A DNA stretch of 13,090 nucleotides from Candidatus Latescibacter anaerobius SCGC AAA252-E07 (GTDB taxonomy: Bacteria > Latescibacterota > Latescibacteria > Latescibacterales > Latescibacteraceae): NCBI GenBank assembly GCA_000403035.1, contig AQSL01000144.1:7853-20942 (forward strand), read 5' to 3'. Both the position numbers and the translations under genes were made by a program. Below the pieces are notes generated by a model. That model saw only the letters and a list, made by a program, of their open reading frames with translations. It made no database searches and was not told the DNA's origin. This document shows positions 2 to 13,012 of this stretch, piece after piece (the first letter of the stretch is position 1; each line of letters starts with the position of its first letter).

Positions 2-700
2 TTTGTATCCCGAGTTTTGAAGATGGAAGAAGATCTGGTAAAGCGTTGGGTTGACAATCGCTTGACAGTAGCTTGTAAGTATGGATTTACCTTAATATAT
101 GATGAGTTTACACGCTCAAGACCAGAGGCAAATAACATCCTCCTTTCTATATTACAGGAGAAGATGATGGATTTGCCAGTAGGACGCGGTGGTGAGGAGC
201 CATATTTAAGGGTCGATCCGGATTTCACCGCTATCTTTACCTCTAACCCTGAGGAATATGCTGGAGTCCACAGGTCTCAAGATGCTTTAAGAGACAGAAT
301 GATTACTATGGATTTGGACCACTTTGACTATGAAACTGAAGTGGCGATCACCCAGGCAAAATCCAAACTCTCTAAACCACATGCAGAAACGATAGTCGAT
401 ATCGTAAGGGGCTTGAGAGAATCTGGAAAGTGCGAATTTGCACCAACAGTTCGTGGTTGTATTATGATTGCAAAAACCCTTAAGGTTCAAAATATTACCC
501 CTTCTAAAGACGGAGCTTTTATGCAGATGTGCCAGGACATCTTAGCTTCAGAAACAAGCAGGGTTGGTTCTAAGACGAATCAAGCCAGGGTAAAAGAAGT
601 AGTTAAGGGGCTTGTCGAGAAAGAACTCGGCATAAGAAAGGCCACTGATGTTGGAAAGAAGACGGTGAAAGAGAGCGTTGTTGCTAGTACGGCCAAGTAG
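2..700 (+). CDS. gvpN: Gas vesicle AAA+ ATPase GvpN (CbbQ/NirQ/NorQ/GvpN family), 5'-truncated by the window edge (C-terminal ~230 aa)
   Basis: The frame is open from base 2 with no upstream stop, so the gene continues 5' of the window. The translation LVKRWVDNRLTVACKYGFTLIYDEFTRSRPEANNILLSILQE...YLRVDPDFTAIFTSNPEEYAGVHRSQDALRDRM matches the GvpN sensor region downstream of Walker B (LIYDEF). The Walker A motif would lie upstream of the window. Confidence 0.85.
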   Translation, partial: FVSRVLKMEEDLVKRWVDNRLTVACKYGFTLIYDEFTRSRPEANNILLSILQEKMMDLPVGRGGEEPYLRVDPDFTAIFTSNPEEYAGVHRSQDALRDRMITMDLDHFDYETEVAITQAKSKLSKPHAETIVDIVRGLRESGKCEFAPTVRGCIMIAKTLKVQNITPSKDGAFMQMCQDILASETSRVGSKTNQARVKEVVKGLVEKELGIRKATDVGKKTVKESVVASTAK

Positions 701-786: not shown

Positions 787-957
787 ATGACGTTGATGCG
801 AGCATTTTCTAAGGTGGATAAAGATGGGAAGATAAAATTTCCTGGCAATATCCAGCGAGCAGCAGACTTAAAAGAAGGCCAGTTGATTGAGCTGAAGATT
901 GTAGGAGCAAGTAGAAAGAAGAATATTTTAGTTTCGGCTAAAGGTAGTGCAAGATAA
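787..957 (+). CDS. Small AbrB/SpoVT/MazE-type swapped-hairpin DNA-binding protein (56 aa), absent from the ORF track
   Basis: ATG at 787 follows a strong SD (GGAGGTGA) 6 nt upstream. The translation is MTLMRAFSKVDKDGKIKFPGNIQRAADLKEGQLIELKIVGASRKKNILVSAKGSAR. The core vDKdGrIxiPxxiRxxlxlkeGdxlElxi is the AbrB/SpoVT looped-hinge-helix fold signature. Confidence 0.6.
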   Translation: MTLMRAFSKVDKDGKIKFPGNIQRAADLKEGQLIELKIVGASRKKNILVSAKGSAR

Positions 958-1381: not shown

Positions 1382-1762
1382 ATGGATTGGAAAACAATCG
1401 ACTTCAAGAGTCAAAAGCCGGGCAAAAAGGGCGAGGTTTTGAATAACCAAATATATAGATGTGGCTTCTGTGGTGCGAAGGGATTTATGCCTTCCAGGAA
1501 GAGCACAAGGTGCCCTGTTTGTTTAGGTGTCGGGACTGTAAAGGCTCAACCTCCAGTTGTAATCTGTGCTTACTGTAATGGTTCAGGAAAATCTCATTTA
1601 AATACTGATCTTACCTGTATTGTCTGTGGTGGAAAAGGGATTGTAGGTGTACATACTAAGCAAGTCGAGATATGCCCTACATGCAAAGGTAGAGGTAGAG
1701 AAAAAGGTGGGAATCTTCCCTGTTTAATGTGCAGAGGAAAAGGAGTTATCTATAAGAAGTAA
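1382..1762 (+). CDS. Standalone DnaJ-type zinc-finger protein with six CxxCxGxG repeats (126 aa)
   Basis: Six evenly spaced motifs are present: CGFCGAKG, CPVCLGVG, CAYCNGSG, CIVCGGKG, CPTCKGRG and CLMCRGKG. This is the DnaJ central Cys-rich repeat type (DnaJ has four). The protein has no J-domain of its own. Confidence 0.8.
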   Translation: MDWKTIDFKSQKPGKKGEVLNNQIYRCGFCGAKGFMPSRKSTRCPVCLGVGTVKAQPPVVICAYCNGSGKSHLNTDLTCIVCGGKGIVGVHTKQVEICPTCKGRGREKGGNLPCLMCRGKGVIYKK

Positions 1763-1794: not shown

Positions 1795-2328
1795 ATGGCA
1801 AAGGGAAAAAAGAAAAAGGAAGAAGATTTGGACATTGATTTTGGAATAGGAAAATTAAGTCTGGGGGGTTTATTTAAAGGTATTGAGAAATTAGTCGACC
1901 TAGCAGCAGATTTAGAAGAAGCAGGTGGCGAAATCAAAAAAGAAGGTGAAATAGACCTGAGCCATCTTAAAGAAGGCATGAAAGGTGTGTTTGGCTTCTC
2001 TATAAAGACGATGGCGGGGGAAAAGACAATTGTTGAGCCTTTCGGTAATATTAAGAAGACTCCTAAAGGACCCAAGGTTGAAGAGGAAAGAGAACCTATG
2101 GTTGATATTTTTGATGAAAAGGAAGAGGTTGTGATTATAGCAGAAATGCCAGGGATTAACGAAGAAGACATCTCGATGGATTTTAAAGGAGATATATTAG
2201 AGGTAAAAGCGGTGTATAAGGATAGAAAATACTATAAAGAAGTTTTGTTACCGGCAAAGGTGAAATCAGAGACCCTGACCTCAACTTATAAAAATGGTAT
2301 ATTAGAAGTAAGAATAAGGAAATGCTAA
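1795..2328 (+). CDS. Hsp20/alpha-crystallin-domain small heat-shock protein (GvpH-like), 177 aa
   Basis: Strong SD (AGGAGGT) precedes the ATG. The C-terminal half (PMVDIFDEKEEVVIIAEMPGINEEDISMDFKGDILEVKA...YKEVLLPAKVKSETLTSTYKNGILEVRIRK) is an alpha-crystallin domain with the characteristic terminal I/V-x-I/V-like motif. The N-terminus is charged and disordered. Confidence 0.8.
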   Translation: MAKGKKKKEEDLDIDFGIGKLSLGGLFKGIEKLVDLAADLEEAGGEIKKEGEIDLSHLKEGMKGVFGFSIKTMAGEKTIVEPFGNIKKTPKGPKVEEEREPMVDIFDEKEEVVIIAEMPGINEEDISMDFKGDILEVKAVYKDRKYYKEVLLPAKVKSETLTSTYKNGILEVRIRKC

Positions 2329-3264
2329 GTGGCATTAATTGGATTAAAAGAAGGTGCCTTAAAGTTAATTCTTTTGGGGGGAAAGGGTGGTGTAGGAAAG
2401 ACGACCTGTTCCTCAAGCACAGGTCTTTACTTAGCTAAAGATTTTAAGACGCTTCTTATCTCGACAGATCCAGCACATTCTTTATCTGATAGTTTAGGCC
2501 AGAAAGTTGGAGATGAGATAGTAGGAGTAAAGGGTGTAGAGAACCTAAGTGCTCTTGAAGTAAGCGCGGAAAAGGCTTTTTCTAAATTTAAGGTTGAATA
2601 TGAAGACCAGATAAAGAAAATCTTGGATACTTCTACGTATTTAGGCCAGGAAGACATTGATTCCATTTTCGCCTTGCCTATCCCGGGAATGGATGAGGTA
2701 ATGGGGTTTAAGACTATAGTTGATCTTATTGAAGAGGCAAGGTTTGATAAATATATTGTTGATACTGCACCCACTGGGCATGCGTTGAGACTTCTGACTT
2801 TACCAGACCTCTTGGATGACTGGATTAAAGTGATGGCAAAGATGAGATGGAAATATAGGTATATGGTTGAAACTTTTGCTGGAAAATATAAACCTGATGA
2901 AGGCGATGATTTTCTATTAAGTATGAAAAAGACGGTAAAGAGAATAGAAGGCCTTCTTAAGGATCAAAGCAGGTGCGAATTTATAGCAGTTACCATTCCA
3001 GAAGATATGGCAATTTTGGAAACGGAGAGGCTGATAAATAATCTGAATAACTATGGAATAAAGGTAAGGCAATTAGTTATAAATAATGTCATGGAATCGA
3101 GGGATTGCGGATTTTGTCAAGAACGAAGAAAAGAGCAAGAAAAATATATAAACCAAATAAAAAGAAAATTTAGCAATTTAAAAACAACAATTATAGCTTT
3201 ACAACCTCGAGAGGTTAAAGGTATAGACGCGTTAAATAATTTTAAGGAGTTGCTATTTCAGTAA
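2329..3264 (+). CDS. ArsA/Get3-family P-loop ATPase (anion-transporting ATPase-like), 311 aa
   Basis: The deviant Walker [11 protein letters not shown], the A-loop/switch [11 protein letters not shown] and switch [14 protein letters not shown] are all hallmarks of the ArsA/Get3 family. A C-terminal CGFC pair is also present. The GTG start at 2329 directly abuts the TAA stop of the Hsp20 gene, suggesting translational coupling. Confidence 0.85.
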
Positions 3265-5429
3265 TGATGAAAAAAAACACAAACCTTACTTTAAAGGTAA
3301 AAGAGGCCTTACCAAAAGATGTGGGAAGGGCAATCGCCAGGATTGACCCAGAGGATATGAAGGCCTTTTGTTTAGAGGTAGGTGATATCATCGAGATTGA
3401 AGGAAAAAGAAAAACACCAGCAAAAATAATGCCCTGTTATACTGAAGAAAGGGGTAAAAAGATTATACAGATAGACGGTATATCGAGAGAAAACGCTCAA
3501 ATAGGGCTGGATGAAAAAGTGGAGATTCATAAAATTAACCATAAACCTGCTAGTAAAATTACTCTCACACCTTTAACCGTATCAACTCTCTTACAAAGAG
3601 ATACAGATGCTAAGTATATCAGTTCGCTTATAGAGGGATTGCCTATAATCCGTGGTGATAGGGTTAGAGCTACGCTATTCGGCTCAAAGTCCTGCGATTT
3701 TAAGGTAGTAGATACCATACCCGAAGGTGTGGTATTGGTAAACCCAACTACTTTGATAAGGATGGAGACGAAAGGGGCTGGAGAAGGCAGACCGGCCAAG
3801 ATTTCATATGAAGATATCGGTGGACTTACTCCCAAAATTCAGAGGATTAGAGAGATGATAGAACTTCCACTGAGATATCCTCAGGTTTTTGAAAGATTGG
3901 GGATTGATGCGCCGAAGGGAGTTTTTCTCTATGGCCCACCGGGCACAGGAAAGACCTTAATCGCTCGTGCAGTAGCTAATGAAACAGACGCCTATTTTAC
4001 TCACATATCAGGTCCTGAGATTATGGGCAAGTTCTACGGTGAAAGTGAAGCACGTCTGCGAAGTGTATTTGAAGATGCTAAAAACCATACTCCTGCCATA
4101 ATTTTTATCGATGAAATAGATGCTATCGCGCCAAAGAGAGAAGAGATGGGTGGAGAAAAGCAGGTTGAACGCAGGGTAGTAGCTCAGCTTTTAGCCCTGA
4201 TGGATGGTTTGGAATCTCGAGGGCAGGTTATTGTTATTGGAGCTACCAATATCCCCAATACAGTTGACCCTGCTCTTCGTAGACCTGGTCGGTTTGATAG
4301 AGAGATACCCATCCCTATCCCTGATAAAAACGGAAGATTTGAGATACTTCAGATTCACACAAGGGGTATGCCTTTAGCAGAAGATGTCAGTGTAGAGAAG
4401 TTGGCTGGGATCACCCATGGATTTGTGGGTGCGGATTTGGAGGCATTAGCCAGAGAAGCGGCAATGAGCGCGTTGAGAAAGATTTTACCTAAAATCACCT
4501 TTGAATTGGCAGATATTCCTTATGAGAGTTTGATGAAGTTAGAAGTAACCATGGATAATTTTTTAGAGGCCATGAAAGAGGTTGAGCCATCGGCCATAAG
4601 AGAAGTATTTGTGGAAGTGCCGGATGTAAAGTGGGAAGATGTAGGAGGTTTAGAAAATATAAAAGAAGAGTTAAAAGAAGCTATAGAGTGGCCATTGAAA
4701 TATTCTGATACCTTTAAAAAGGCAAATACTAATCCTCCCAAAGGGATCCTACTTTATGGAATACCTGGAACAGGAAAGACACTTTTGGCCAAGGCAGTGG
4801 CTAATGAAAGCGGAGTTAATTTTTTATCCATTAAAGGGCCACAACTTATCAGCCGCTATGTTGGAGAGTCAGAGCGAGGGGTAAGAGAGATATTTAAGAA
4901 GGCAAAACAGGTAGCGCCAACAATACTTTTTATTGATGAGATAGATAGCCTTGTGCCCAGACGTGGTTCAGGTTCTACCGATTCTCATGTTACAGAAAGG
5001 GTAATAAGTCAATTTCTAACTGAGATGGATGGGATTGAAGAGCTTAAGGGAGTCGTTGTTTTAGCCGCTACTAACAGGTTAGATATAGTTGATCCTGCCA
5101 TTTTACGGAGTGGTAGATTTGACCTCTTACTTGAGTTGCCTGTGCCAGATGAAAAAACCAGGGAAGAGATATTTAAGATACATACTAAGGATAAACCCCT
5201 TTCTAAAGACGTGGATTTGAAGAGTTTAGCCAAAGAGACCGAAGATAAAGTAGGTTCTGATATTGAATTTATCTGTCGTAAGGCCTCAATGCTGGCGATA
5301 AGAAAATTTATAGAAAATCCGAGAAATAAAGATGAACTCATTATTATTAAGAAGAAGCATTTCGAAGAGGCTATTAAGATAGTAAACGAACAGAAAAAAA
5401 TGGGGGGAGAAGATGGCAAAGATTATTGA
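3264..5429 (+). CDS. Cdc48/p97/VAT-like double-ring AAA+ ATPase with N-terminal double-psi-barrel domain (721 aa)
   Basis: The N-domain [38 protein letters not shown] resembles VAT-N/Cdc48-N. The D1 domain has [17 protein letters not shown] and a second-region-of-homology arginine motif RRPGRFDRE. The D2 domain has GIPGTGKT and ILFIDEIDS. The ATG at 3264 overlaps the TAA stop of the ArsA-like gene (TAATG). Confidence 0.9.
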
Positions 5430-5565
5430 AAAAATTAAAAATCTCTTTAGTGGCAAGGTTGTCTTTAAATCAAAGTGTGGAGCAAAGAAAGAAGAGGCAA
5501 AACCAAAACAAGAAACCTCTTCCCAAGAAAAATCCGAAGAGAAAAAACAACAACCCTCAACATAA
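5413..5565 (+). CDS. Possible small lysine-rich ORF (50 aa) overlapping the 3' end of the Cdc48-like gene
   Basis: The ATG at 5413 is preceded by a G-rich SD-like run (GGGGGGAG). The translation is [50 protein letters not shown]. The region is low-complexity and A-rich, so this could be a chance ORF. Confidence 0.25.
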
Positions 5566-5618: not shown

Positions 5619-5885
5619 ATGGGATTTGTAGAATTTGAATACCTATTAGTAATCAGTTTAGTAGTTTCATTGGTATTAGCATATTTGCCGAAGGTAAAGA
5701 TTACACTCCCGGGAGGGATTACGACAAATATTATCGTTAGCTATATTGGAGCAAGGCTTGGTGCAGTTGTGTTTGGGAATTGGCTATTTTTAACCTTTCA
5801 GGGTATTAGTATTTTGCCAGCAATATTGGGAGCGATAGTCGCGATTCTCTTAGGCAAGGCCTGTGTAGAGTGCTCTAAGAAGTAA
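5619..5885 (+). CDS. Small integral membrane protein (88 aa), resembling the GlsB/YeaQ/YmgE (transglycosylase-associated) stress membrane-protein family
   Basis: A GAGGTG SD lies 4-5 nt upstream of the ATG. The protein has hydrophobic helices with Gly-zipper-like motifs (IGARLGAVVFG, ILPAILGAIVAILLG) and a C-terminal CVEC pair. It is a paralog of the 12707-13012 product. Confidence 0.65.
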   Translation: MGFVEFEYLLVISLVVSLVLAYLPKVKITLPGGITTNIIVSYIGARLGAVVFGNWLFLTFQGISILPAILGAIVAILLGKACVECSKK

Positions 5886-5966: not shown

Positions 5967-6992
5967 GTGGCTGAAACAGAAAAATATATTTACGGAATTA
6001 TAAATTCTAATGAAGCATTATACTTTGGTTCTTTTGGAACAACTGCATGTGAGGAGGTTTATACTATTCCTTATCAAGATATTTCAGTAGTAGTAAGTAA
6101 CTCTGAAATGGTTGATTACACCATTTTACCCAAGGATGCAGTAGTCAGACATCTGTTTAAGCATCAGCAGGTAATCGAAAAAGTTATGGAGGGCTTTACA
6201 GTAATCCCCATGCGATTAGGAACATTTGCATATGATGAAGATGAAGTAAGATATATTTTGGCCAAAGCCTACCTAATGGTTAAGGACATATTTAATAAGA
6301 TATCTGATAAAATCGAGATTGATGTTGTTGCCACTTGGGGTGATTTTGATTCCGTCCTTAAAGTGATTGGAGAAGAAAAGGAGATTAAGGGATTCAGAGA
6401 AAGTCTTTTAACCAATCCTAAAGAGATAACCGTAGACAACCAGATGAAAGTGGGAGCTATGGTCAAAAACCACTTATATAAAAAAAGAGAAAAATATACT
6501 CTAGAAATACAAACATCCCTAAGCAAAATTATCCAAGGAATCAAAGTTCATGAGCTTATGAATGATGAGATGGTCTTAAATACTGCCTTTTTAATAAATA
6601 AAACTAAACAGAAAGAATTTGATAAAAAAATAGAAAAACTAAATACAAAATTTAATAACGAGTTGAACTTTAGATGTGTTGGTCCGCTACCTCCTTATAG
6701 CTTTTACACACTCGAGATCAAGAAGTGGCAATTTGAAGAGATAGATTGGGCAAGAAGAAAACTTGGGCTCCAAAACAACTTTGCAACTAAAGATGAAATA
6801 AAAAAAGCCCATCAGACAATGGCGTTTACTTTTCACCCTGACAAAAATCCCAATACTTCTGGCATAGAGAGAGAATTCGATGAGATAACAAAGGCTTATA
6901 AATTGTTGTGTGAATATTGCGAGGGAGATAGTTGTTCTTTTAGTGAGGAAGAATTCAAAAAGAACGCAATATTAGTCAAGGTAAGAGATTGA
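5967..6992 (+). CDS. gvpF: GvpF/GvpL-family gas vesicle protein fused to a C-terminal DnaJ J-domain (341 aa)
   Basis: The N-terminal ~250 aa carry GvpF/L motifs: KYIYGII, VxxHxxVIEKVMEGFTVIPMRLGTF, NTAFLINK and RCVGPLPPYSFY. Residues ~258-315 (WARRKLGLQNNFATKDEIKKAHQTMAFTFHPDKNPNTSGIEREFDEITKAYKLL) form a canonical J-domain with the HPD motif at nt 6834-6842. The tail CEYCEGDSCS is Cys-rich. GTG start with a GAGGAG SD. Confidence 0.85.
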   Translation: MAETEKYIYGIINSNEALYFGSFGTTACEEVYTIPYQDISVVVSNSEMVDYTILPKDAVVRHLFKHQQVIEKVMEGFTVIPMRLGTFAYDEDEVRYILAKAYLMVKDIFNKISDKIEIDVVATWGDFDSVLKVIGEEKEIKGFRESLLTNPKEITVDNQMKVGAMVKNHLYKKREKYTLEIQTSLSKIIQGIKVHELMNDEMVLNTAFLINKTKQKEFDKKIEKLNTKFNNELNFRCVGPLPPYSFYTLEIKKWQFEEIDWARRKLGLQNNFATKDEIKKAHQTMAFTFHPDKNPNTSGIEREFDEITKAYKLLCEYCEGDSCSFSEEEFKKNAILVKVRD

Positions 6993-6993
6993 T

Positions 6994-7764
6994 ATGGAAA
7001 AAGAAGGAAAATATATCTATTGTATTATCGCGACATCACAAGAGAGAAATTTTGGTCCTATTGGAATAGGTGAAAGAGGCGACGATGTCCTAACCATCGG
7101 CTATAATGACCTAAGCATGGTTATGAGCAATCATCCTATAGTTAAATTTGTTGTTAATCGAGAAAACATGTTAGCTCATGAGAAAGTAATTGAGGAAGTG
7201 ATGAAGGAATTTGATGGTGTGCTTCCGGTCAGGTTTGGCACGATTGCATCCAGTGCCGATGAGATAAGGAATCTTTTGGACAGAAGATATAGAGAATTTA
7301 AGACGCTGTTACGAGATATGGACCACAAGGTAGAATTAGGTGTTAAAGGCATATGGAAGGATATGGATGTAATCTTTAAAAAAATTGTAGAAGAAAATAA
7401 AGGGATCAAGAAAACAAAAGAGAATATTCAGAACGATAAAGGTAAGAAAAATATTCAAGCCAAAATGGAGATTGGCAAGATGGTCGAGCATGCCTTAGCA
7501 ATAAAGAAGGAAAAAGAGGCGGAAAGTATAGTAAATACCCTTAAAAGAGCAGCTTTTGATTATAAACTCAATAGAACCGCTGGTGATGAGATGTTTATGA
7601 ATGCTGCTTTTTTGGTTGATAAAGGTAGAGAAAAAGAGTTTGATAATATAATGGTTGACTTAAGTAACAAATACAAAGATAGAATAAAGTTTATGTATGT
7701 AGGGCCTTTACCTGTATTTAACTTTGTCAATATTGTCATTTATCCTGAAGAGTGGGAGAAATAA
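6994..7764 (+). CDS. gvpF: GvpF/GvpL-family gas vesicle protein, paralog 2 (256 aa)
   Basis: Carries the motifs EGKYIYCII, NMLAHEKVIEEVMKEFDGVLPVRFGTI, NAAFLVDK and FMYVGPLPVFNF. It starts 1 nt after the stop of the preceding gvpF-J gene. Confidence 0.85.
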   Translation: MEKEGKYIYCIIATSQERNFGPIGIGERGDDVLTIGYNDLSMVMSNHPIVKFVVNRENMLAHEKVIEEVMKEFDGVLPVRFGTIASSADEIRNLLDRRYREFKTLLRDMDHKVELGVKGIWKDMDVIFKKIVEENKGIKKTKENIQNDKGKKNIQAKMEIGKMVEHALAIKKEKEAESIVNTLKRAAFDYKLNRTAGDEMFMNAAFLVDKGREKEFDNIMVDLSNKYKDRIKFMYVGPLPVFNFVNIVIYPEEWEK

Positions 7765-8065
7765 TGGGTCTATCAGGGACAGAGGCAGAGATTATAAATT
7801 GTGTTGCTAAGTTAAGACAGGCGACCAAAGACCAAATAAGAAGAGAGAGGTGGGTTTTTCGTTAGATTATATCGGTTTTTTATGCCGATATTTAGTCAGA
7901 AAAGGTTTCCTGAATTTCTCTGGCGGCTATTATTCTTTGGCAAAGGCAGGGATAAAGATACACCTAGAAGAAGAGCCAGAGATTGATAGAGCGTTACTTA
8001 AGGAAGTTGCTGGCGAGGTTAGCTCAACAGATCGGCAGAGAATTAAAAAAACAATAAAAGGTTAG
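7764..8065 (+). pseudogene. Winged-helix (MarR/ArsR/PadR-like) small transcriptional regulator split by a -1 frameshift in a purine-rich tract (~7840-7855)
   Basis: Frame A (7764-7865) reads MGLSGTEAEIINCVAKLRQATKDQIRRERWVFR*, which is helix 1-2 of an HTH. Frame B (from 7850) reads VGFSLDYIGFLCRYLVRKGFLNFSGGYYSLAKAG..., which is the recognition helix plus wing. Both frames read RRE across aagaagagagaggtggg, so one indel in this run would restore a ~100-aa wHTH protein. The ATG overlaps the gvpF2 stop (TAATG). Confidence 0.55.
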
Positions 8066-8102
8066 ACTTGTCCCAATTAGAGTATTTTCGATAGTGTGAT
8101 AT

Positions 8103-8172
8103 TGGGTTGCTCTGGCAAAAGGGTATATTGATAATACAGTAATAAAAAAACTTTAGCCGGATGAGCAACCCA
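8103..8172. promoter_or_regulatory. 10-bp perfect inverted repeat (TGGGTTGCTC ... GAGCAACCCA) with a 50-nt spacer, in the 192-nt intergenic gap upstream of gvpF3
   Basis: The arms lie at 8103-8112 and 8163-8172. The intervening AT-rich DNA contains TATATT (8124-8129) and TTGATA motifs. This is the largest non-coding gap inside the cluster and is a likely internal promoter/operator region. Confidence 0.4.
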
Positions 8173-8257
8173 TGAGTAAGTTTAGCAGTATTTTCAGTCA
8201 ATTACTGATGATTCCCTTAAGTAAGTTTCTTATTTACGGGATGAAGGCAAGAAATAG

Positions 8258-9025
8258 ATGGAAGTAGCTTTAAAAGAAGGTAAATATATATACTGTATTA
8301 TTGAATCAAATAAGCCTCGTTCTTTTGGTCCTTTAGGTATTGGTGGAAGGGCTGATGAGTTGTATACAGTCTGCTTCAATGGTCTTGCCGCTTGTGTGAG
8401 CAACTCTCCCATAATAAAGTATTCTTGTTTAAGGGATAATATGCTTGCCCATGAAATGGCAATTGAGGAGGTAATGAAGGAATATACAGTCTTGCCAGTT
8501 CGATTTAATACGATTGCTGATGATGAAGAAAAGGTAAAGAAGATATTAGAAATAGATCACGATAGGTTTATAGATGCATTGAAAAATATGGAAGGTAAGA
8601 AAGAACTGGGGCTTAAAGCCATATTTAAAGAAGAAATTATTTATAAAGATATATTAGAAAGGTATGAAGATATAAGGATATTAAAAGAAAAAATAGCTCT
8701 ACTTTCACCCGAAAGAACATATTACCAACGTATGGAAATAGGAAGAATGGTGGAAGCATCTGTACAAAATGAAAGAGAGATCTGCAAAAAGGAGATATTG
8801 GATTCTTTAATACCTTTGGCAGAAGACAATAAAATCAATAATACCTATGGTGAGTTAATGATTTTAAGCGCCGCCTTTTTAGTCAACAGAGACAAAGAAG
8901 TAGAGTTTGACCGGAAGGTTGAGGAATTCAATACAAAATATGGTGATAAAATAAAATTTAAGTATGTGGGAACAATACCGCCATTTAATTTTGTAAATCT
9001 TGTCATTGAAACAGGAAAATATTAG
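8258..9025 (+). CDS. gvpF: GvpF/GvpL-family gas vesicle protein, paralog 3 (255 aa)
   Basis: Carries the motifs EGKYIYCII, NMLAHEMAIEEVMKEYTVLPVRFNTI, SAAFLVNR and FKYVGTIPPFNF. Confidence 0.85.
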   Translation: MEVALKEGKYIYCIIESNKPRSFGPLGIGGRADELYTVCFNGLAACVSNSPIIKYSCLRDNMLAHEMAIEEVMKEYTVLPVRFNTIADDEEKVKKILEIDHDRFIDALKNMEGKKELGLKAIFKEEIIYKDILERYEDIRILKEKIALLSPERTYYQRMEIGRMVEASVQNEREICKKEILDSLIPLAEDNKINNTYGELMILSAAFLVNRDKEVEFDRKVEEFNTKYGDKIKFKYVGTIPPFNFVNLVIETGKY

Positions 9026-9027
9026 AT

Positions 9028-9264
9028 ATGTTTTTAATCGATGACATATTACTTGCGCCTTTAAAGGGCGTGATTTGGATTGGGGAAAGGCTTAACGAGA
9101 TAGCAGAAAAGGAATTCTCCGATGAGGGGCGTATAAAAGAGAAACTTATGGAATTGCAACTGAAATTCGAAATGGATGAAATAAGTGAAGAAGAGTATAA
9201 TAGGCAGGAGAAAGAACTTTTAGAGCGCTTAAATGCAATTAGGAAAGCAAAGGAGGAGGTGTAA
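9028..9264 (+). CDS. gvpG: Gas vesicle protein GvpG (78 aa)
   Basis: MFLIDDILLAPLKGVIWIGERLNEIAEKE...LMELQLKFEMDEISEEEYNRQEKELLERLNAI matches the GvpG pattern: an N-terminal PxxGxxWIxE motif and LQxxFxxGEISEEE. Confidence 0.8.
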   Translation: MFLIDDILLAPLKGVIWIGERLNEIAEKEFSDEGRIKEKLMELQLKFEMDEISEEEYNRQEKELLERLNAIRKAKEEV

Positions 9265-9265
9265 A

Positions 9266-9532
9266 ATGGCTAATATTGAAGAGGCAAGAAAAGCAGTGGC
9301 AGAATTTTTAAGGAAAACTCTCAATGTTAAAGATGTAAAGGTAATTAAGACGGCAAAGGCTGGTGATGGCTGGGAAACTGAGGCTGAAGTATATGAAGAA
9401 AGCTCGTTCATAAAGTCACTCGGTCTTCCCACAAGAGTCCAGGATAGGAATATTTATGCGGTCAAACTAAATAGCAGTTTAGAAGTTGATTCCTATGAGC
9501 GCAAGGGTACAGAAGAGCAAGAGGAAAGATAA
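9266..9532 (+). CDS. gvpO: GvpO-like gas vesicle protein, paralog 1 (88 aa)
   Basis: ATG at 9266 follows an excellent SD (GGAGGAGGTG). The preferred start is downstream of the track's 9233 start, which overlaps gvpG. The architecture AVAEFLRKTL...DGWETEAEVYE...YAVKLNSSLEVDSYERK parallels GvpO (..DGW..V.V.E...Y.V..d..G.l.gY.R..). It is a paralog of the 11490-11744 product. Confidence 0.6.
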   Translation: MANIEEARKAVAEFLRKTLNVKDVKVIKTAKAGDGWETEAEVYEESSFIKSLGLPTRVQDRNIYAVKLNSSLEVDSYERKGTEEQEER

Positions 9533-9534
9533 AA

Positions 9535-10344
9535 ATGGAGGGATTATATCTTTATTGCATAAGAGAAAAAATAGAAGATGCTCCTGGAATTTCTGTAAAA
9601 GGAATTGATGGAAAGGGAGAGGTTTTTATCCTTGTTCATGGCCAGTTAGAAGCAGTGGTAAGCAAGGTTTCCTTAAAAGAATTCAGTTCTGAAGAGATTC
9701 AGAAAAAAGCCCAGGAAGACTTAAACTGGATTAAAGAAAAAGCCCTTCTCCATCAAAAGGTTATAGAAGAAGCAATGAAAAAGAACGATAAGCTCTTAGA
9801 TCTAATTCCTATGAGGTTTGGGATCATCTTTAAAGAGGAAACAAAATTAAAACAGACTCTATATAAAGATTATACCAAGATTAAAGAAACATTAGAGAGA
9901 ATTCGGGGAAAACAGGAATGGAGCCTAAAGGTGTATTTAAAAGACAAAGAAAAATTTGAAGAAGTGGTAAAAGAAAAGAATCCACTAATAAAGGAAAAGG
10001 AAAAAGAGATAACAAATTTACCTGAGGGTATGGCCTTTTTTATGGAAGAGGAGTTAAAAGAGGTTATCTTTAAAGAAGTAGATAAAGATTTAAACGATTT
10101 TGTAGAGGTTGTTTTTGAGGATTTTAAAAAGCAAGCCATGGATTCCGTTAAAAATAAGATTTTGGAAAAAGAATTAACCGGAAAACCTGAGCATATGATT
10201 TTAAACGCTGCCTATTTAATCCCTGAGGAAAAGGTTGAGAATTTTAAAAAAGAGGCTGAAATTCTCAATCAAAAGATACAAGAAAAAGGGATTTACCTTG
10301 AGTATAGCGGTCCTTGGCCACTTTATAATTTTACATCTTATTAA
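9535..10344 (+). CDS. gvpL: GvpL/GvpF-family gas vesicle protein, paralog 4 (269 aa, more divergent and GvpL-like)
   Basis: Carries the motifs LYLYCI, AVVSKV, LLHQKVIEEAMKKNDKLLDLIPMRFGII, NAAYLIPEEK and YSGPWPLYNF. The middle is K/E-rich. Confidence 0.8.
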   Translation: MEGLYLYCIREKIEDAPGISVKGIDGKGEVFILVHGQLEAVVSKVSLKEFSSEEIQKKAQEDLNWIKEKALLHQKVIEEAMKKNDKLLDLIPMRFGIIFKEETKLKQTLYKDYTKIKETLERIRGKQEWSLKVYLKDKEKFEEVVKEKNPLIKEKEKEITNLPEGMAFFMEEELKEVIFKEVDKDLNDFVEVVFEDFKKQAMDSVKNKILEKELTGKPEHMILNAAYLIPEEKVENFKKEAEILNQKIQEKGIYLEYSGPWPLYNFTSY

Positions 10345-10348
10345 ACTT

Positions 10349-10882
10349 ATGATTAAAAAAACTGATAATGTAACATTAGTAGATGCCTTAGATAAGGTTT
10401 TAGAGAAAGGCGCAGTTATCACTGGGGATATAGTGATAAGGGTAGCTGATGTGGATCTTGTCTTTTTAGGCTTACGGCTTATCCTTACATCAATTTCCAA
10501 GGCCGAAGAACTGTCTGGCAAGAGTTTCAGTGATCCAGATAAAGAGTTTACCCCTGAAGATATAGAATATATACAGAAATTACAAAGGGAGATAAGAAGA
10601 GCCGAAGAAAATATTCCTAAACTTATTGATCTAGGCAATCCTAAAAAGACAGAACAAGGTTTAGCTAAATTAATTTTAACCCTTGTTGAACTTATAAGAA
10701 GACTTATGGAGAAAGAAGCCTATAGGAGAGTAAAGAGAGGAAAGTTATCCAATATAGAAATTCAAAAATTGGGATTAAGCCTTAAGGCTGTTCAAAAAAA
10801 GATAAAAGAAGTTCAGACAATCTTTGGTATTGAGGATGAAGAGCTAAATTTAGACTTAGGTCCTTTAGGAAATTTAATGTAG
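10349..10882 (+). CDS. gvpK: Fusion of a GvpA/GvpJ-like N-terminal domain with a GvpK C-terminal domain (177 aa)
   Basis: The N-terminus MIKKTDNVTLVDALDKVLEKGAVITGDIVIRVADVDLVFLGLRLILTSISKAEEL is a GvpA-family core. The C-terminus GLAKLILTLVELIRRLMEKEAYRRVKRGKLSNIEIQKLGLSL...EDEELNLDLGPLGNLM matches the GvpK signature (LxLTxVELLRxLxERQAxRR...LGPLG). The ATG is 4 nt after the gvpL stop. The track's upstream extension (10235) overlaps gvpL and is rejected. Confidence 0.7.
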   Translation: MIKKTDNVTLVDALDKVLEKGAVITGDIVIRVADVDLVFLGLRLILTSISKAEELSGKSFSDPDKEFTPEDIEYIQKLQREIRRAEENIPKLIDLGNPKKTEQGLAKLILTLVELIRRLMEKEAYRRVKRGKLSNIEIQKLGLSLKAVQKKIKEVQTIFGIEDEELNLDLGPLGNLM

Positions 10883-10892
10883 GAGAAAAAAG

Positions 10893-11156
10893 ATGCATAA
10901 AGAAGGAGCTAAAATAAATTGTGTAACATTTCAAAAGCAAGAAAAGGTAATAAAGGATATTACTGATAAGATTAATATGGCTAAGGGAGTGCGAGAGAAA
11001 GCGATATTTGCCGAAGAATTACAGAAAGAAGTAGATATGCTTTTAACTTGTCCGGATTATGATGATAAAAAATTAGACTGTAAGAATTGTCGTTTCATTG
11101 CAAATTTGCGTAAGAAAACCTCATGTTTAATTATAAAAGCTAAAAAGTTAGTATAA
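10893..11156 (+). CDS. Hypothetical small Cys-containing protein (87 aa)
   Basis: An AGGAG SD lies 7 nt upstream. Cysteines sit at positions 10, 53, 62, 65 and 77 (CPDYDDKKLDCKNCRF...C). No family was recognised. It is tightly packed between gvpK and the gvpJ-like gene. Confidence 0.5.
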   Translation: MHKEGAKINCVTFQKQEKVIKDITDKINMAKGVREKAIFAEELQKEVDMLLTCPDYDDKKLDCKNCRFIANLRKKTSCLIIKAKKLV

Positions 11157-11173
11157 GAAAGTCGGAGATAATC

Positions 11174-11479
11174 ATGTCAGAACAAAAAATGATGCACGCC
11201 ACAAATGCTACTAATCTTGCTGATATCTTAGAGCGGGTATTAGACAAGGGAATTGTAATTGCCGGAGATATCCAGATTAAAATTGCCGATGTTGAACTTT
11301 TAACGATAAAGATAAGGTTATTGGTTGCCTCTGTGGATAAGGCAATGGAGATGGGTATAAACTGGTGGCAAACTGATAGTTTTCTTTCCTCAAAAGCAAA
11401 AGAGGCTGAGATAGAAAATGAAAACACAGAGCTGAAAAAGAGATTAGGAAAATTAGAGGAGAAGATTAAAAGTGCATAA
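11174..11479 (+). CDS. gvpJ: GvpA-family minor gas vesicle protein (GvpJ/GvpM-like), 101 aa
   Basis: LADILERVLDKGIVIAGDIQIKIADVELLTIKIRLLVASVDKAMEMG is the GvpA/J/M core. It has a coiled-coil C-terminal tail. GGAG SD lies 6 nt upstream. Confidence 0.85.
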   Translation: MSEQKMMHATNATNLADILERVLDKGIVIAGDIQIKIADVELLTIKIRLLVASVDKAMEMGINWWQTDSFLSSKAKEAEIENENTELKKRLGKLEEKIKSA

Positions 11480-11489
11480 GGAGCAGAAA

Positions 11490-11744
11490 ATGGAAATTAA
11501 AGATATTGTGGAAATTGCTAAGGCGGGGTTGGTTCAACTTACCGGATTTAGTTCTCCCACTGCGATAGGAATAAACAAAGAAGCGGATATATGGCACATT
11601 ACTGTAGAAATAATAGAAAAACCTTCGGAAGCAGTTAATCTGGAGCTTCTTGGAATTTATGATGTCCGAATAGATGCTTCTGGAAATCTTCTTGGTTATG
11701 AGAAAATAAGGATGAGGAAGCGTGGTGATGTTCAAAAAGGGTAA
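11490..11744 (+). CDS. gvpO: GvpO-like gas vesicle protein, paralog 2 (84 aa)
   Basis: AAGGAG lies 6 nt upstream of the ATG at 11490. The C-terminus VNLELLGIYDVRIDASGNLLGYEKIRMRKRGDVQKG closely matches the GvpO C-terminal motif (L.asY.V..D..G.L.gY.RvRRYERG). Confidence 0.65.
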   Translation: MEIKDIVEIAKAGLVQLTGFSSPTAIGINKEADIWHITVEIIEKPSEAVNLELLGIYDVRIDASGNLLGYEKIRMRKRGDVQKG

Positions 11745-12569: not shown

Positions 12570-12706
12570 ATATGTTTGCCAATTGAAGTATATTTCCACA
12601 CATTAACCGGGGAGATACTACCGAGTACAGGGAACATCACGAGCCGCCCGTTTCCGAAATAATTCCTTGAATCCCGGAGAACTCATAACTGAAGGGGGTG
12701 AAAGGT

Positions 12707-13012
12707 ATGATTTATGTGGGGTTTTTACCGTTTTTGTATCTGTTAATCATCGGGATAGTAGTTTCTTTGATACTGTTTTTTGTGCCGAAGATCACGGTTA
12801 AACTTCCCGGAGGGTATCCCGTCAATTTAATTGCTGGCTATGTCGGTGCCTGGGTAGGAACGCCTGTATTTGGCAAATGGGAGTTTTTGACCCGCGGTGA
12901 GATAAGTATTATCCCTGCTATACTGGGTGCTATCGCGGCGATTCTCTTGGCTAATTCCTGTGCAGAATGCTGTAGGAAATATGGAGAAAAACAGACAGGA
13001 CAACAAGGATAA
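12707..13012 (+). CDS. Small integral membrane protein (101 aa), second GlsB/YeaQ/YmgE-like paralog
   Basis: The ATG at 12707 is 6 nt after AGGGGGTGA. The track's GTG at 12698 is less likely. The product aligns with the 5619-5885 product (VPKITVKLPGGYPVNLIAGYVGAWVGTPVFGKWEFLT...IIPAILGAIAAILLANSCAEC versus LPKVKITLPGGITTNIIVSYIGARLGAVVFGNWLFLT...ILPAILGAIVAILLGKACVEC). Confidence 0.7.
   Translation: MIYVGFLPFLYLLIIGIVVSLILFFVPKITVKLPGGYPVNLIAGYVGAWVGTPVFGKWEFLTRGEISIIPAILGAIAAILLANSCAECCRKYGEKQTGQQG

Follow-up and report, generated by a model that had tools for sequence, protein, structure and literature searches.

A Single-Domain Get3-Type ATPase Encoded Between Hsp20 and Cdc48 in a Gas-Vesicle Gene Cluster of Candidatus Latescibacter anaerobius and in Related Loci of Other Phyla

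Introduction

Homologs of the ArsA ATPase have been reported, together with hsp20, from gas-vesicle (gvp) operons of Polaribacter, Pelodictyon, Geobacter uraniireducens, Anabaena/Nostoc, and an acidobacterium, in which ars genes are absent, and it was proposed that the ArsA homolog energizes a biogenic step distinct from the one of GvpN (Castillo and Saier, 2010, Int J Microbiol, PMC2963123). Here, we analyzed a stretch of 13,090 nucleotides, referred to as the window, from Candidatus Latescibacter anaerobius SCGC AAA252-E07 (contig AQSL01000144.1, positions 7,853 to 20,942, forward strand), which harbors a gvp cluster with a gene for an ATPase of the ArsA/Get3/TRC40 family. An earlier note, made from the DNA alone, had considered this association to be undescribed, which is wrong in view of the 2010 report. 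The association between ArsA and gvp genes is thus not new in itself; what is new is the single-domain CXXC form of the ATPase, locked between Hsp20 and Cdc48, and this form is widespread in uncultured, mostly anaerobic phyla.

The homologs described by Castillo and Saier (their clusters 4 and 6) resemble the window gene in that they encode ArsA-family ATPases within gvp clusters, often along with hsp20 and without arsR or other ars genes. Their gvp-linked forms are two-domain proteins of ~600-640 amino acids, whereas the window protein consists of one domain of 311 amino acids and would have to dimerize. The CXXC motif, Cdc48, a J-domain GvpF, and a Get3-type chaperone mechanism are not mentioned in that report (PMC2963123), and the phyla considered here (Omnitrophota, Planctomycetota, Elusimicrobiota, Nitrospirota, and others) lie outside its coverage.

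A precedent for a dedicated holdase of hydrophobic Gvp proteins is the Hsp20-like GvpH, which keeps GvpM soluble and prevents its aggregation (PMC6107691), although it belongs to a different family and has no ATPase activity. Aggregation of GvpA causes proteotoxic stress in Escherichia coli unless the assembly factors are present first (PMC12848028). Get3, in turn, also acts as an ATP-independent holdase and gathers with the small heat-shock protein (sHsp) Hsp42 and the AAA+ protein Hsp104 (PMC3613179), a gathering that is mirrored by the sHsp and AAA+ neighbors of the window protein. In our literature search, which left most subscription journals uncovered, no paper was found that deals with gas vesicles together with Get3, TRC40, tail-anchored proteins or, in a meaningful way, Cdc48, nor one that describes a Get3-type holdase or delivery factor for GvpA, GvpJ, or GvpM.

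The Window Protein Is a Get3-Type ATPase

The gene is an uninterrupted open reading frame (ORF) of 311 codons with a GTG start, which is backed by homologs whose onset (MALTGL...) falls in the same alignment column. The following features were assigned to it:

2329-3264 (+), ArsA/Get3/TRC40-family ATPase, single domain, 311 amino acids (PF02374, TIGR00345, AlphaFold2 model, Foldseek)
2377-2406 (+), deviant Walker A motif or P-loop of the GKGGVGKT type, residues 17-26 (translation; invariant in 33 aligned homologs)
2467-2490 (+), switch I, DPAHSLSD, residues 47-54 (translation; alignment to Get3 structures)
2761-2796 (+), switch II of the DTAPTGH type, residues 145-156 (translation and homolog alignment)
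2821-2862 (+), near-invariant amphipathic helix, residues 165-178, in the helical (client-binding) subdomain, a signature of the gvp-linked lineage (conservation analysis)
3106-3117 (+), CGFC, residues 260-263, counterpart of the zinc-binding CXXC of Get3 at the dimer interface (alignment)

The assignment to the ArsA/Get3 family, which the earlier note had made along with the recognition of all three nucleotide-binding motifs and of a single domain, is confirmed by profile searches: PF02374 (ArsA_ATPase) matches residues 12-310 with 277 bits (E 2.4e-82; cut-off 24.3), and TIGR00345 (TRC40/GET3/ArsA) scores 276 bits at a cut-off of 135. P-loop, switch I, and switch II are invariant across the clade, and D47 in switch I is the counterpart of the catalytic Asp of Get3, as judged by alignment to Get3 structures. 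An AlphaFold2 model based on 33 homologs, with a predicted local distance difference test (pLDDT) of 87.3 and a predicted template modeling score (pTM) of 0.85, shows a predicted Get3-type fold of an NTPase core and a helical subdomain. When this model was compared to the PDB with Foldseek, the best 50 chains were all Get3/TRC40 with template modeling (TM) scores of 0.73-0.80, among them client-bound yeast Get3 with tail-anchor helices (4xtr, 4xwo), and the closest structure was TRC40 of Methanothermobacter thermautotrophicus (3zq6, TM 0.80, 36% identity).

On the sequence level, the best single-domain matches in the PDB are two archaeal Get3 proteins with 195 bits each (M. thermautotrophicus 3zq6 and Methanocaldococcus jannaschii 3ug6; 36-37% identity, TM 0.75-0.80), compared to 145 bits for E. 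coli-type ArsA. The archaeal proteins are alike in length class, motifs, and position of the CXXC, whereas the window protein falls into a separate clade of the neighbor-joining (NJ) tree, whose deep nodes are weak, and is encoded in a gvp cluster of a bacterial host instead of by a lone gene. Eukaryotic Get3/TRC40 (yeast, human) shows ~30% identity, and by analogy its fold, zinc-CXXC dimer, and ATP-dependent open/closed logic are expected to be shared; its clients are membrane proteins, whereas those of the window protein would more likely be shell proteins of a protein-walled organelle. Among PDB entries, Chlamydomonas ARSA1 (5zme), a factor for chloroplast tail-anchored proteins, reached the top phmmer score when its two halves are summed (255 bits). 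This protein is a tandem Get3-like ATPase and in this respect resembles the tandem gvp-linked relatives described below; it differs from the window protein in its tandem architecture, in the aligned half, which has "DKFL" instead of CXXC, and in its grouping with the archaeal/eukaryotic Get3 clade.

In Get3, two CXXC motifs jointly hold one zinc ion across the dimer interface. The CGFC of the window protein aligns column-for-column with CDFC/CEFC of archaeal Get3 and CEQC/CPQC of fungal Get3, and a CXXC at this position is kept in 176 of 180 collected homologs. The suggestion of the earlier note that the C-terminal cysteine pair could contribute to a dimer-bridging metal site is thus well founded by homology.

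The ATPase Gene Is Firmly Linked to Hsp20, Cdc48, and gvp Genes

All window genes for which support was found lie on one strand (+) and constitute a gas-vesicle cluster, and antisense ORFs are without support. The gvp set comprises GvpN, four GvpF/L paralogs (one with a J domain), GvpG, two GvpO-like proteins, a GvpJ-GvpK fusion, and a GvpA/M-type protein. The profile matches of the neighbors agree with the earlier note in placing the ATPase gene between Hsp20 and Cdc48 within this cluster:

17-700 (+), GvpN, C-terminal part of a gene that runs past the window start (TIGR02640, 213 bits)
1382-1762 (+), DnaJ-type CXXCXGXG zinc-finger protein (PF00684, 40 bits; conserved in many loci)
1795-2328 (+), Hsp20 or GvpH-like sHsp, directly upstream of the ATPase gene (PF00011; GvpH 22.9 bits, cut-off 22; NF041800 139.7 bits)
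3264-5429 (+), Cdc48-type AAA+ ATPase with complete N, D1, and D2, directly downstream of the ATPase gene (TIGR01243, 944 bits)
5967-6992 (+), GvpF/L with C-terminal J domain, HPD at residue 290 (PF06386 and PF00226; HPD by translation)
6994-11744 (+), two GvpF, GvpG, GvpO-like protein, GvpL, GvpJ plus GvpK, Cys-rich ORF, GvpA/M-type protein, and GvpO (Pfam; synteny in ~70 loci)

A match of the Hsp20 to PF17886 ("HSP20-like domain found in ArsA") is weak (18.8 bits, cut-off 22.5) and was not used as evidence.

The stop codon TAA of hsp20 directly abuts the GTG of the ATPase gene (0-nt gap, window 2326-2331, +), with an AGGA ~10 nt 5' of the GTG, and the same 0-nt junction occurs in 28 related loci. 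The stop codon of the ATPase gene and the start codon of cdc48 share 1 nt as TAATG (window 3262-3266, +), with an AAGGAG 14 nt 5', and overlaps of -1 or -4 nt are common at this junction among related loci. Shine-Dalgarno-like purine-rich stretches thus precede both starts. The earlier note had described the ATPase gene as translationally coupled to its neighbors; the tight junctions stand, and their geometry is compatible with coupling but no proof of it.

Database searches yielded thousands of relatives. The best 120 of these are 79-99% identical to the window protein, measure 300-331 amino acids, stem from metagenome-assembled genomes (MAGs) of Omnitrophota, Nitrospirota, and others, and have database labels that do not go beyond "ArsA family ATPase" or "arsenite-transporting ATPase"; proteins of the close clade are 306-339 amino acids long. 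A scan with one genome per species revealed 66 loci at 48-85% identity, all from MAGs, and the host groups are Omnitrophota, Planctomycetota (Pirellulales, Sedimentisphaerales), Elusimicrobiota, Nitrospirota, Thermodesulfobacteriota and other "delta" lineages, Lentisphaerota, Ignavibacteriales, Sumerlaeota, Nitrospinota, and one Cyclobacteriaceae genome. The arrangement Hsp20-ArsA-Cdc48 within gvp genes was found in ~70 loci from approximately ten phyla. Searches with the window proteins by tblastn showed that essentially all loci long enough to judge share one gene order, which reads GvpN, (AbrB-like), coiled-coil protein, (zinc-finger protein), Hsp20, ArsA, Cdc48, GvpF-J domain, GvpF, GvpF, GvpG, GvpO-like, GvpL, GvpJ/K, Cys-rich protein, GvpA/M. 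The gene directly preceding the ATPase gene is hsp20 in 60 of 63 loci, the one directly following it is cdc48 in 50 of 54, and the J-domain GvpF follows Cdc48 directly in related loci as well. Full-length Cdc48 (N-D1-D2) also occurs in gvp clusters with a different gene order, and it has its own family of >80% identity in the same phyla; no paper describing Cdc48 in gvp clusters was found.

The cluster proteins are mostly 55-90% identical across the approximately ten phyla (some GvpF/L paralogs are lower), with the gene order kept and all loci being from MAGs. This suggests wide horizontal transfer of the cluster type among bacteria of anoxic freshwater, groundwater, and sediment. The taxonomy follows the MAG labels, and besides horizontal spread, binning errors could contribute to the identity of 62-90% across phyla.

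More distant relatives were collected by searching 1.8 billion cluster representatives, with the genomic context examined for a sample. Outside the close clade the nearest relatives are mostly tandem proteins of ~650 amino acids, with few single-domain forms, and the CXXC is retained in most halves of the tandem proteins. The context could be read for 11 distant relatives, which are single-domain or tandem proteins of 31-54% identity, and all 11 are gvp-linked; one further contig was too short. The gene order in these loci is shuffled, and Cdc48, Hsp20, Hsp70, or DnaJ are often near:

P0220, single-domain, 54% identity: Hsp20-ArsA-Cdc48-GvpF-J, after GvpA and GvpN
P0268, single-domain, 48% identity: Hsp20-Cdc48 ... 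GvpF-ArsA-GvpG
P0325, single-domain, 46% identity: GvpF-J, GvpF, GvpG, GvpO, Hsp70, Cdc48, ArsA
Cyclobacteriaceae protein (L067), single-domain, 48% identity: gvp cluster that lacks both Hsp20 and Cdc48; the protein itself is closest to the window clade
P0180 type, three loci, tandem, ~46% identity: gvp clusters
P0183, P0186, P0294, and P0326, tandem, 31-41% identity: gvp clusters, several with Cdc48, Hsp70, or DnaJ

The tandem relatives (31-46% identity) thereby sit in clusters like those of Castillo and Saier. A linkage to gvp genes that outlasts changes of gene order is, as far as comparative evidence goes, the strongest argument for a shared function. Together with the synteny in ~70 loci, it fits the proposal of the earlier note that the function is tied to gas vesicles and not to arsenic, and the protein very probably serves the formation or maintenance of gas vesicles in some ATP-dependent way.

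Fusions of ArsA to Hsp20, Gvp, or Cdc48 domains were not found among the longer relatives, which comprise only tandem ArsA proteins, N-terminal extensions, and one TPR fusion. In the latter (P0203, 984 amino acids) TPR repeats are located N-terminal to a tandem ArsA relative; TPR is a typical co-chaperone adaptor, as in Sgt2 of the GET pathway. P0333 (1007 amino acids) was considered as an ArsA-Cdc48 fusion and rejected, as it is a Cdc48 with a duplicated AAA domain and probably an assembly artifact. A tandem ArsA in a gvp cluster with a 900-amino-acid Cdc48 nearby was also found in L078 (GCA_043811615.1, labeled "archaeon"; a cluster member is labeled Nanoarchaeota), which is either a gas-vesicle cluster of a DPANN-type archaeon or a binning error.

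The Helical Subdomain Is as Conserved as the ATPase Core

Conservation was calculated as the mean column identity among 63 close-clade sequences below 85% identity. It amounts to 0.84-0.85 in the helical subdomain (residues 78-136 and 157-212), compared to 0.75-0.84 in the ATPase core. Invariant positions of the subdomain include F87, K88, TST101-103, D109, and the stretch 165-178, which starts with W165 and, if read as a helix, carries Leu/Trp/Ile/Met/Tyr/Phe on one face and Lys/Arg on the other. In Get3, the helical subdomain is usually the more variable, generic client-binding part. Its fixation in the close clade suggests one particular, conserved partner.

The region from helix alpha7 to alpha9 comprises 56 amino acids, compared to 62-65 in archaeal and fungal Get3 and 29-42 in the ArsA halves. 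An element W..[LM]..K[YH]R in helix alpha7 is common to all gvp-linked forms, single and tandem, and all of them are without ~6 residues of the alpha8 insert of Get3.

Proposed Role and Alternative Explanations

The neighbors of the ATPase are all modules of protein homeostasis: the GvpH-type sHsp, the DnaJ-type zinc finger, the J domain of GvpF, and Cdc48, joined in some relatives by Hsp70 and DnaJ (both encoded, the DnaJ as a separate protein, in the clusters L077 and L079). The J-domain GvpF suggests a dedicated recruitment of Hsp70 to vesicle assembly. Based on these chaperone-type neighbors and on what has been published on GvpH, GvpA, and Get3 (PMC6107691, PMC12848028, PMC3613179), we propose, at about even odds, an ATP-driven chaperone of GvpA/J/M-type proteins that forms a zinc-bridged homodimer and works together with the sHsp, Cdc48, and the J-domain GvpF. 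In such a scheme the CGFC motifs of two subunits would jointly bind a zinc ion that bridges them, as in Get3, and ATP binding and hydrolysis would open and close a composite site built from the two helical subdomains. The closed state would hold aggregation-prone hydrophobic Gvp proteins, with GvpA, GvpJ, and GvpM-type proteins as the leading candidates and possibly also GvpG with its N-terminal helix. The Hsp20/GvpH-like holdase and the J-domain GvpF, which would recruit Hsp70, might act upstream, so that clients would come from the sHsp and the Hsp70 system or be shared with them. Their release would take place where the vesicle grows or at the GvpF/G/L complex that nucleates it, and the Cdc48 unfoldase might extract or recycle misassembled or collapsed wall protein. 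The most hydrophobic 19-residue segments among the Gvp proteins (Kyte-Doolittle) are found in GvpJ (1.97), GvpA (1.91), GvpG (1.56), and the GvpA/M-type protein (1.45); in GvpG the segment lies at the N-terminus, and in the other three proteins it belongs to the hairpin region. The two small membrane proteins of the window, which are unrelated to Gvp, exceed them in hydrophobicity.

Several observations speak against a chaperone of this kind. None of the hydrophobic segments represents a C-terminal membrane anchor, and no conserved tail-anchored protein was found in the cluster; the candidate clients have internal beta-hairpin segments with charges, unlike the C-terminal helices bound by Get3. 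Neither a Get1/Get2 (WRB/CAML) receptor nor a Get4/5/Sgt2 loader was detected among the window proteins by Pfam and NCBIfam, a search that covered the cluster only. The CXXC is missing in a few family members, including a Bacteroidota type (P0121/P0122). With 6 Met residues compared to 13-14 in archaeal Get3, 13 aromatic residues compared to 8-9, more charged and basic residues, and an alpha8 insert ("TRC40 insert") that is ~6 residues shorter than that of Get3, the groove of the window protein may differ from the Get3 groove. Also, the conservation of the helical subdomain could equally reflect the binding of Hsp20, Cdc48, or GvpF/G and not of a client. The well-studied gvp clusters of Halobacterium, Bacillus megaterium, and Serratia and the Anabaena genes employed in reporters yield vesicles and are not known to include an ArsA homolog, in which case the protein would be an accessory and not a core factor.

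The main rival, at clearly lower probability than the client-holding chaperone, is a nucleotide-dependent switch or scaffold in the manner of SIMIBI dimers such as MinD, ParA, and NifH, which would hold no hydrophobic client. It would organize or energize the GvpF/G/L nucleation complex or position vesicles, which comes close to the idea of Castillo and Saier. Such a role would suit the gene positions in relatives, where the ATPase gene lies directly after GvpF-GvpG (tandem forms of L072, L081, and P0326) or between GvpF and GvpG (L076); the conserved basic/aromatic helix could be a protein-protein interface, and the subdomain is less Met-rich than that of Get3. Nevertheless, the features that distinguish Get3 from MinD/ParA, namely the large helical subdomain and the CXXC, are kept, the closest structures are only Get3/TRC40 with no MinD or ParA structure among the top 50 matches, and MinD/ParA models score just 17-25 bits against cut-offs of 180-213. 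The co-travelling genes moreover encode chaperones and unfoldases (Hsp20, Cdc48, J domain, Hsp70) and not cytoskeletal or positioning factors.

A further alternative is a holdase that works mainly without ATP and is switched by stress or redox state, like oxidized Get3/TRC40; it would shield Gvp proteins under stress only, and four conserved cysteines would form the switch. Residues C27, C216, C260, and C263 are kept in 163-176 of 180 homologs, a holdase mode of Get3 is documented (PMC3613179), and an sHsp is the upstream neighbor. However, the invariant ATPase motifs imply that ATP turnover is under selection, and C216 does not align with the CXC redox pair of Get3. The host groups of the MAGs are mostly anaerobic, so that oxidative switching should be rare. 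As the main mode of action a redox holdase appears improbable; it may exist alongside the ATP-driven mechanism.

Even less probable is a role as the tail-anchored-protein targeting factor of the host, i.e., a bacterial Get3 that lies among the gvp genes by chance or for the sake of a membrane protein on which buoyancy depends. The Get3 fold and the CXXC would be in line with it, and two small membrane proteins are encoded in the window (5619-5885, 12698-13012), but these were not found in related loci, and a linkage to receptor or insertase genes was not seen. The linkage to gvp genes in ~80 loci across phyla, which persists through changes of gene order, would be unexpected for a housekeeping factor.

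Finally, the catalytic subunit of an arsenite/antimonite efflux pump, i.e., ArsA proper, for which only the shared family name and the database label "arsenite-transporting ATPase" speak, can be dismissed on account of profile score, architecture, cysteines, neighbors, identity, and tree. The ArsA equivalog model TIGR04291 scores 135 bits at a cut-off of 650. ArsA of the ars operon (E. coli R773 type, 1f48) has the P-loop family and the switch motifs in common with the window protein, yet it is a tandem A1-A2 protein of ~583 amino acids with a metalloid Cys triad and the partners arsD/arsB, none of which applies to the single domain of 311 amino acids: the positions of the metalloid-binding C113, C172, and C422 of E. 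coli ArsA are not Cys in the alignment, and ars genes (arsB/acr3, arsD, arsR) were found neither in the window nor in any related locus examined. Identity to a plasmid ArsA, whose locus (L071) carries arsR, arsD, arsB, and arsC, is 29%, and no relative above 33% identity was found in the plasmid collection. The NJ distance tree has both ArsA halves as its outgroup (bootstrap 96) and puts the window protein into a separate clade (bootstrap 100); the tree resolves the close clade and the ArsA outgroup, while its deep nodes (bootstraps 1-57) do not allow the origin of the lineage to be deduced. A placement within arsenite-efflux ArsA next to arsB or arsD, which the earlier note had named as the finding that would speak against a gas-vesicle function, was thus not observed.

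Returning to the ATP-driven chaperone for GvpA/J/M-type proteins, we consider it possible, with more doubt than confidence, that a Get3-type ATPase of bacteria has been diverted from the targeting of membrane proteins to the building of a lipid-free, protein-walled organelle, as part of a self-contained relay that holds, delivers, and recycles GvpA-family proteins. The relay would consist of the ATPase, the sHsp, the Cdc48 unfoldase, the J-domain GvpF, and sometimes its own Hsp70, and it would travel as a module with gvp clusters across approximately ten phyla. GvpA-family proteins are extremely hydrophobic and have to stay in solution on their way into the growing vesicle, and their aggregation is the main obstacle to the expression of gas vesicles as acoustic reporters in other hosts (PMC12848028). 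A cluster type with its own Get3-like ATPase, sHsp, Cdc48, and J-domain protein might provide a ready-made chaperone set, whose co-expression could possibly improve yields. For the Get3 field it would, if true, mean that the fold serves a client that is not a membrane protein. The value of these considerations is tempered by the fact that the bare association was reported in 2010 and that the evidence presented here is comparative or predicted.

Further Genes of the Cluster

The zinc-finger protein encoded at 1382-1762, 5' of hsp20, has 126 amino acids with CXXCXGXG repeats and no J domain, and a second, more distant copy is located 5' of GvpN in many related loci. Right after GvpN, at 787-957 (+), lies an ORF of 56 amino acids of the SpoVT/AbrB (MazE-like) type with 73-88% identity in many related loci, which is possibly a small regulator or adaptor. 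Genes for a sigma-54 activator and a PAS-histidine kinase occur in the upstream regions of L001, L003, L004, and L075.

A small ORF of 50-52 amino acids overlaps or follows the cdc48 stop (window 5413-5565, +; L001 13150-13308); it is conserved, has a Lys/Glu/Pro-rich tail, and gave no family match. The two small membrane proteins at 5619-5885 (+) and 12698-13012 (+) are paralogous and show a weak match of the Transgly_assoc/GlsB type; due to their absence from related loci, they are probably specific for this genome.

At 10235-10882 (+) a GvpJ-type Gas_vesicle domain is fused to GvpK. The two are also fused in L003, and they are separate neighbors in L001 and L004. The longest ORF starts with a TTG at 10235 and overlaps the preceding GvpL gene, so that the ATG at 10337 may be the true start. 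The ORF at 10893-11156 (+) encodes a Cys-containing protein of 87 amino acids without a family match, which is conserved (41-76% identity) in most related loci, where its gene is flanked by those for GvpK and the GvpA/M-type protein.

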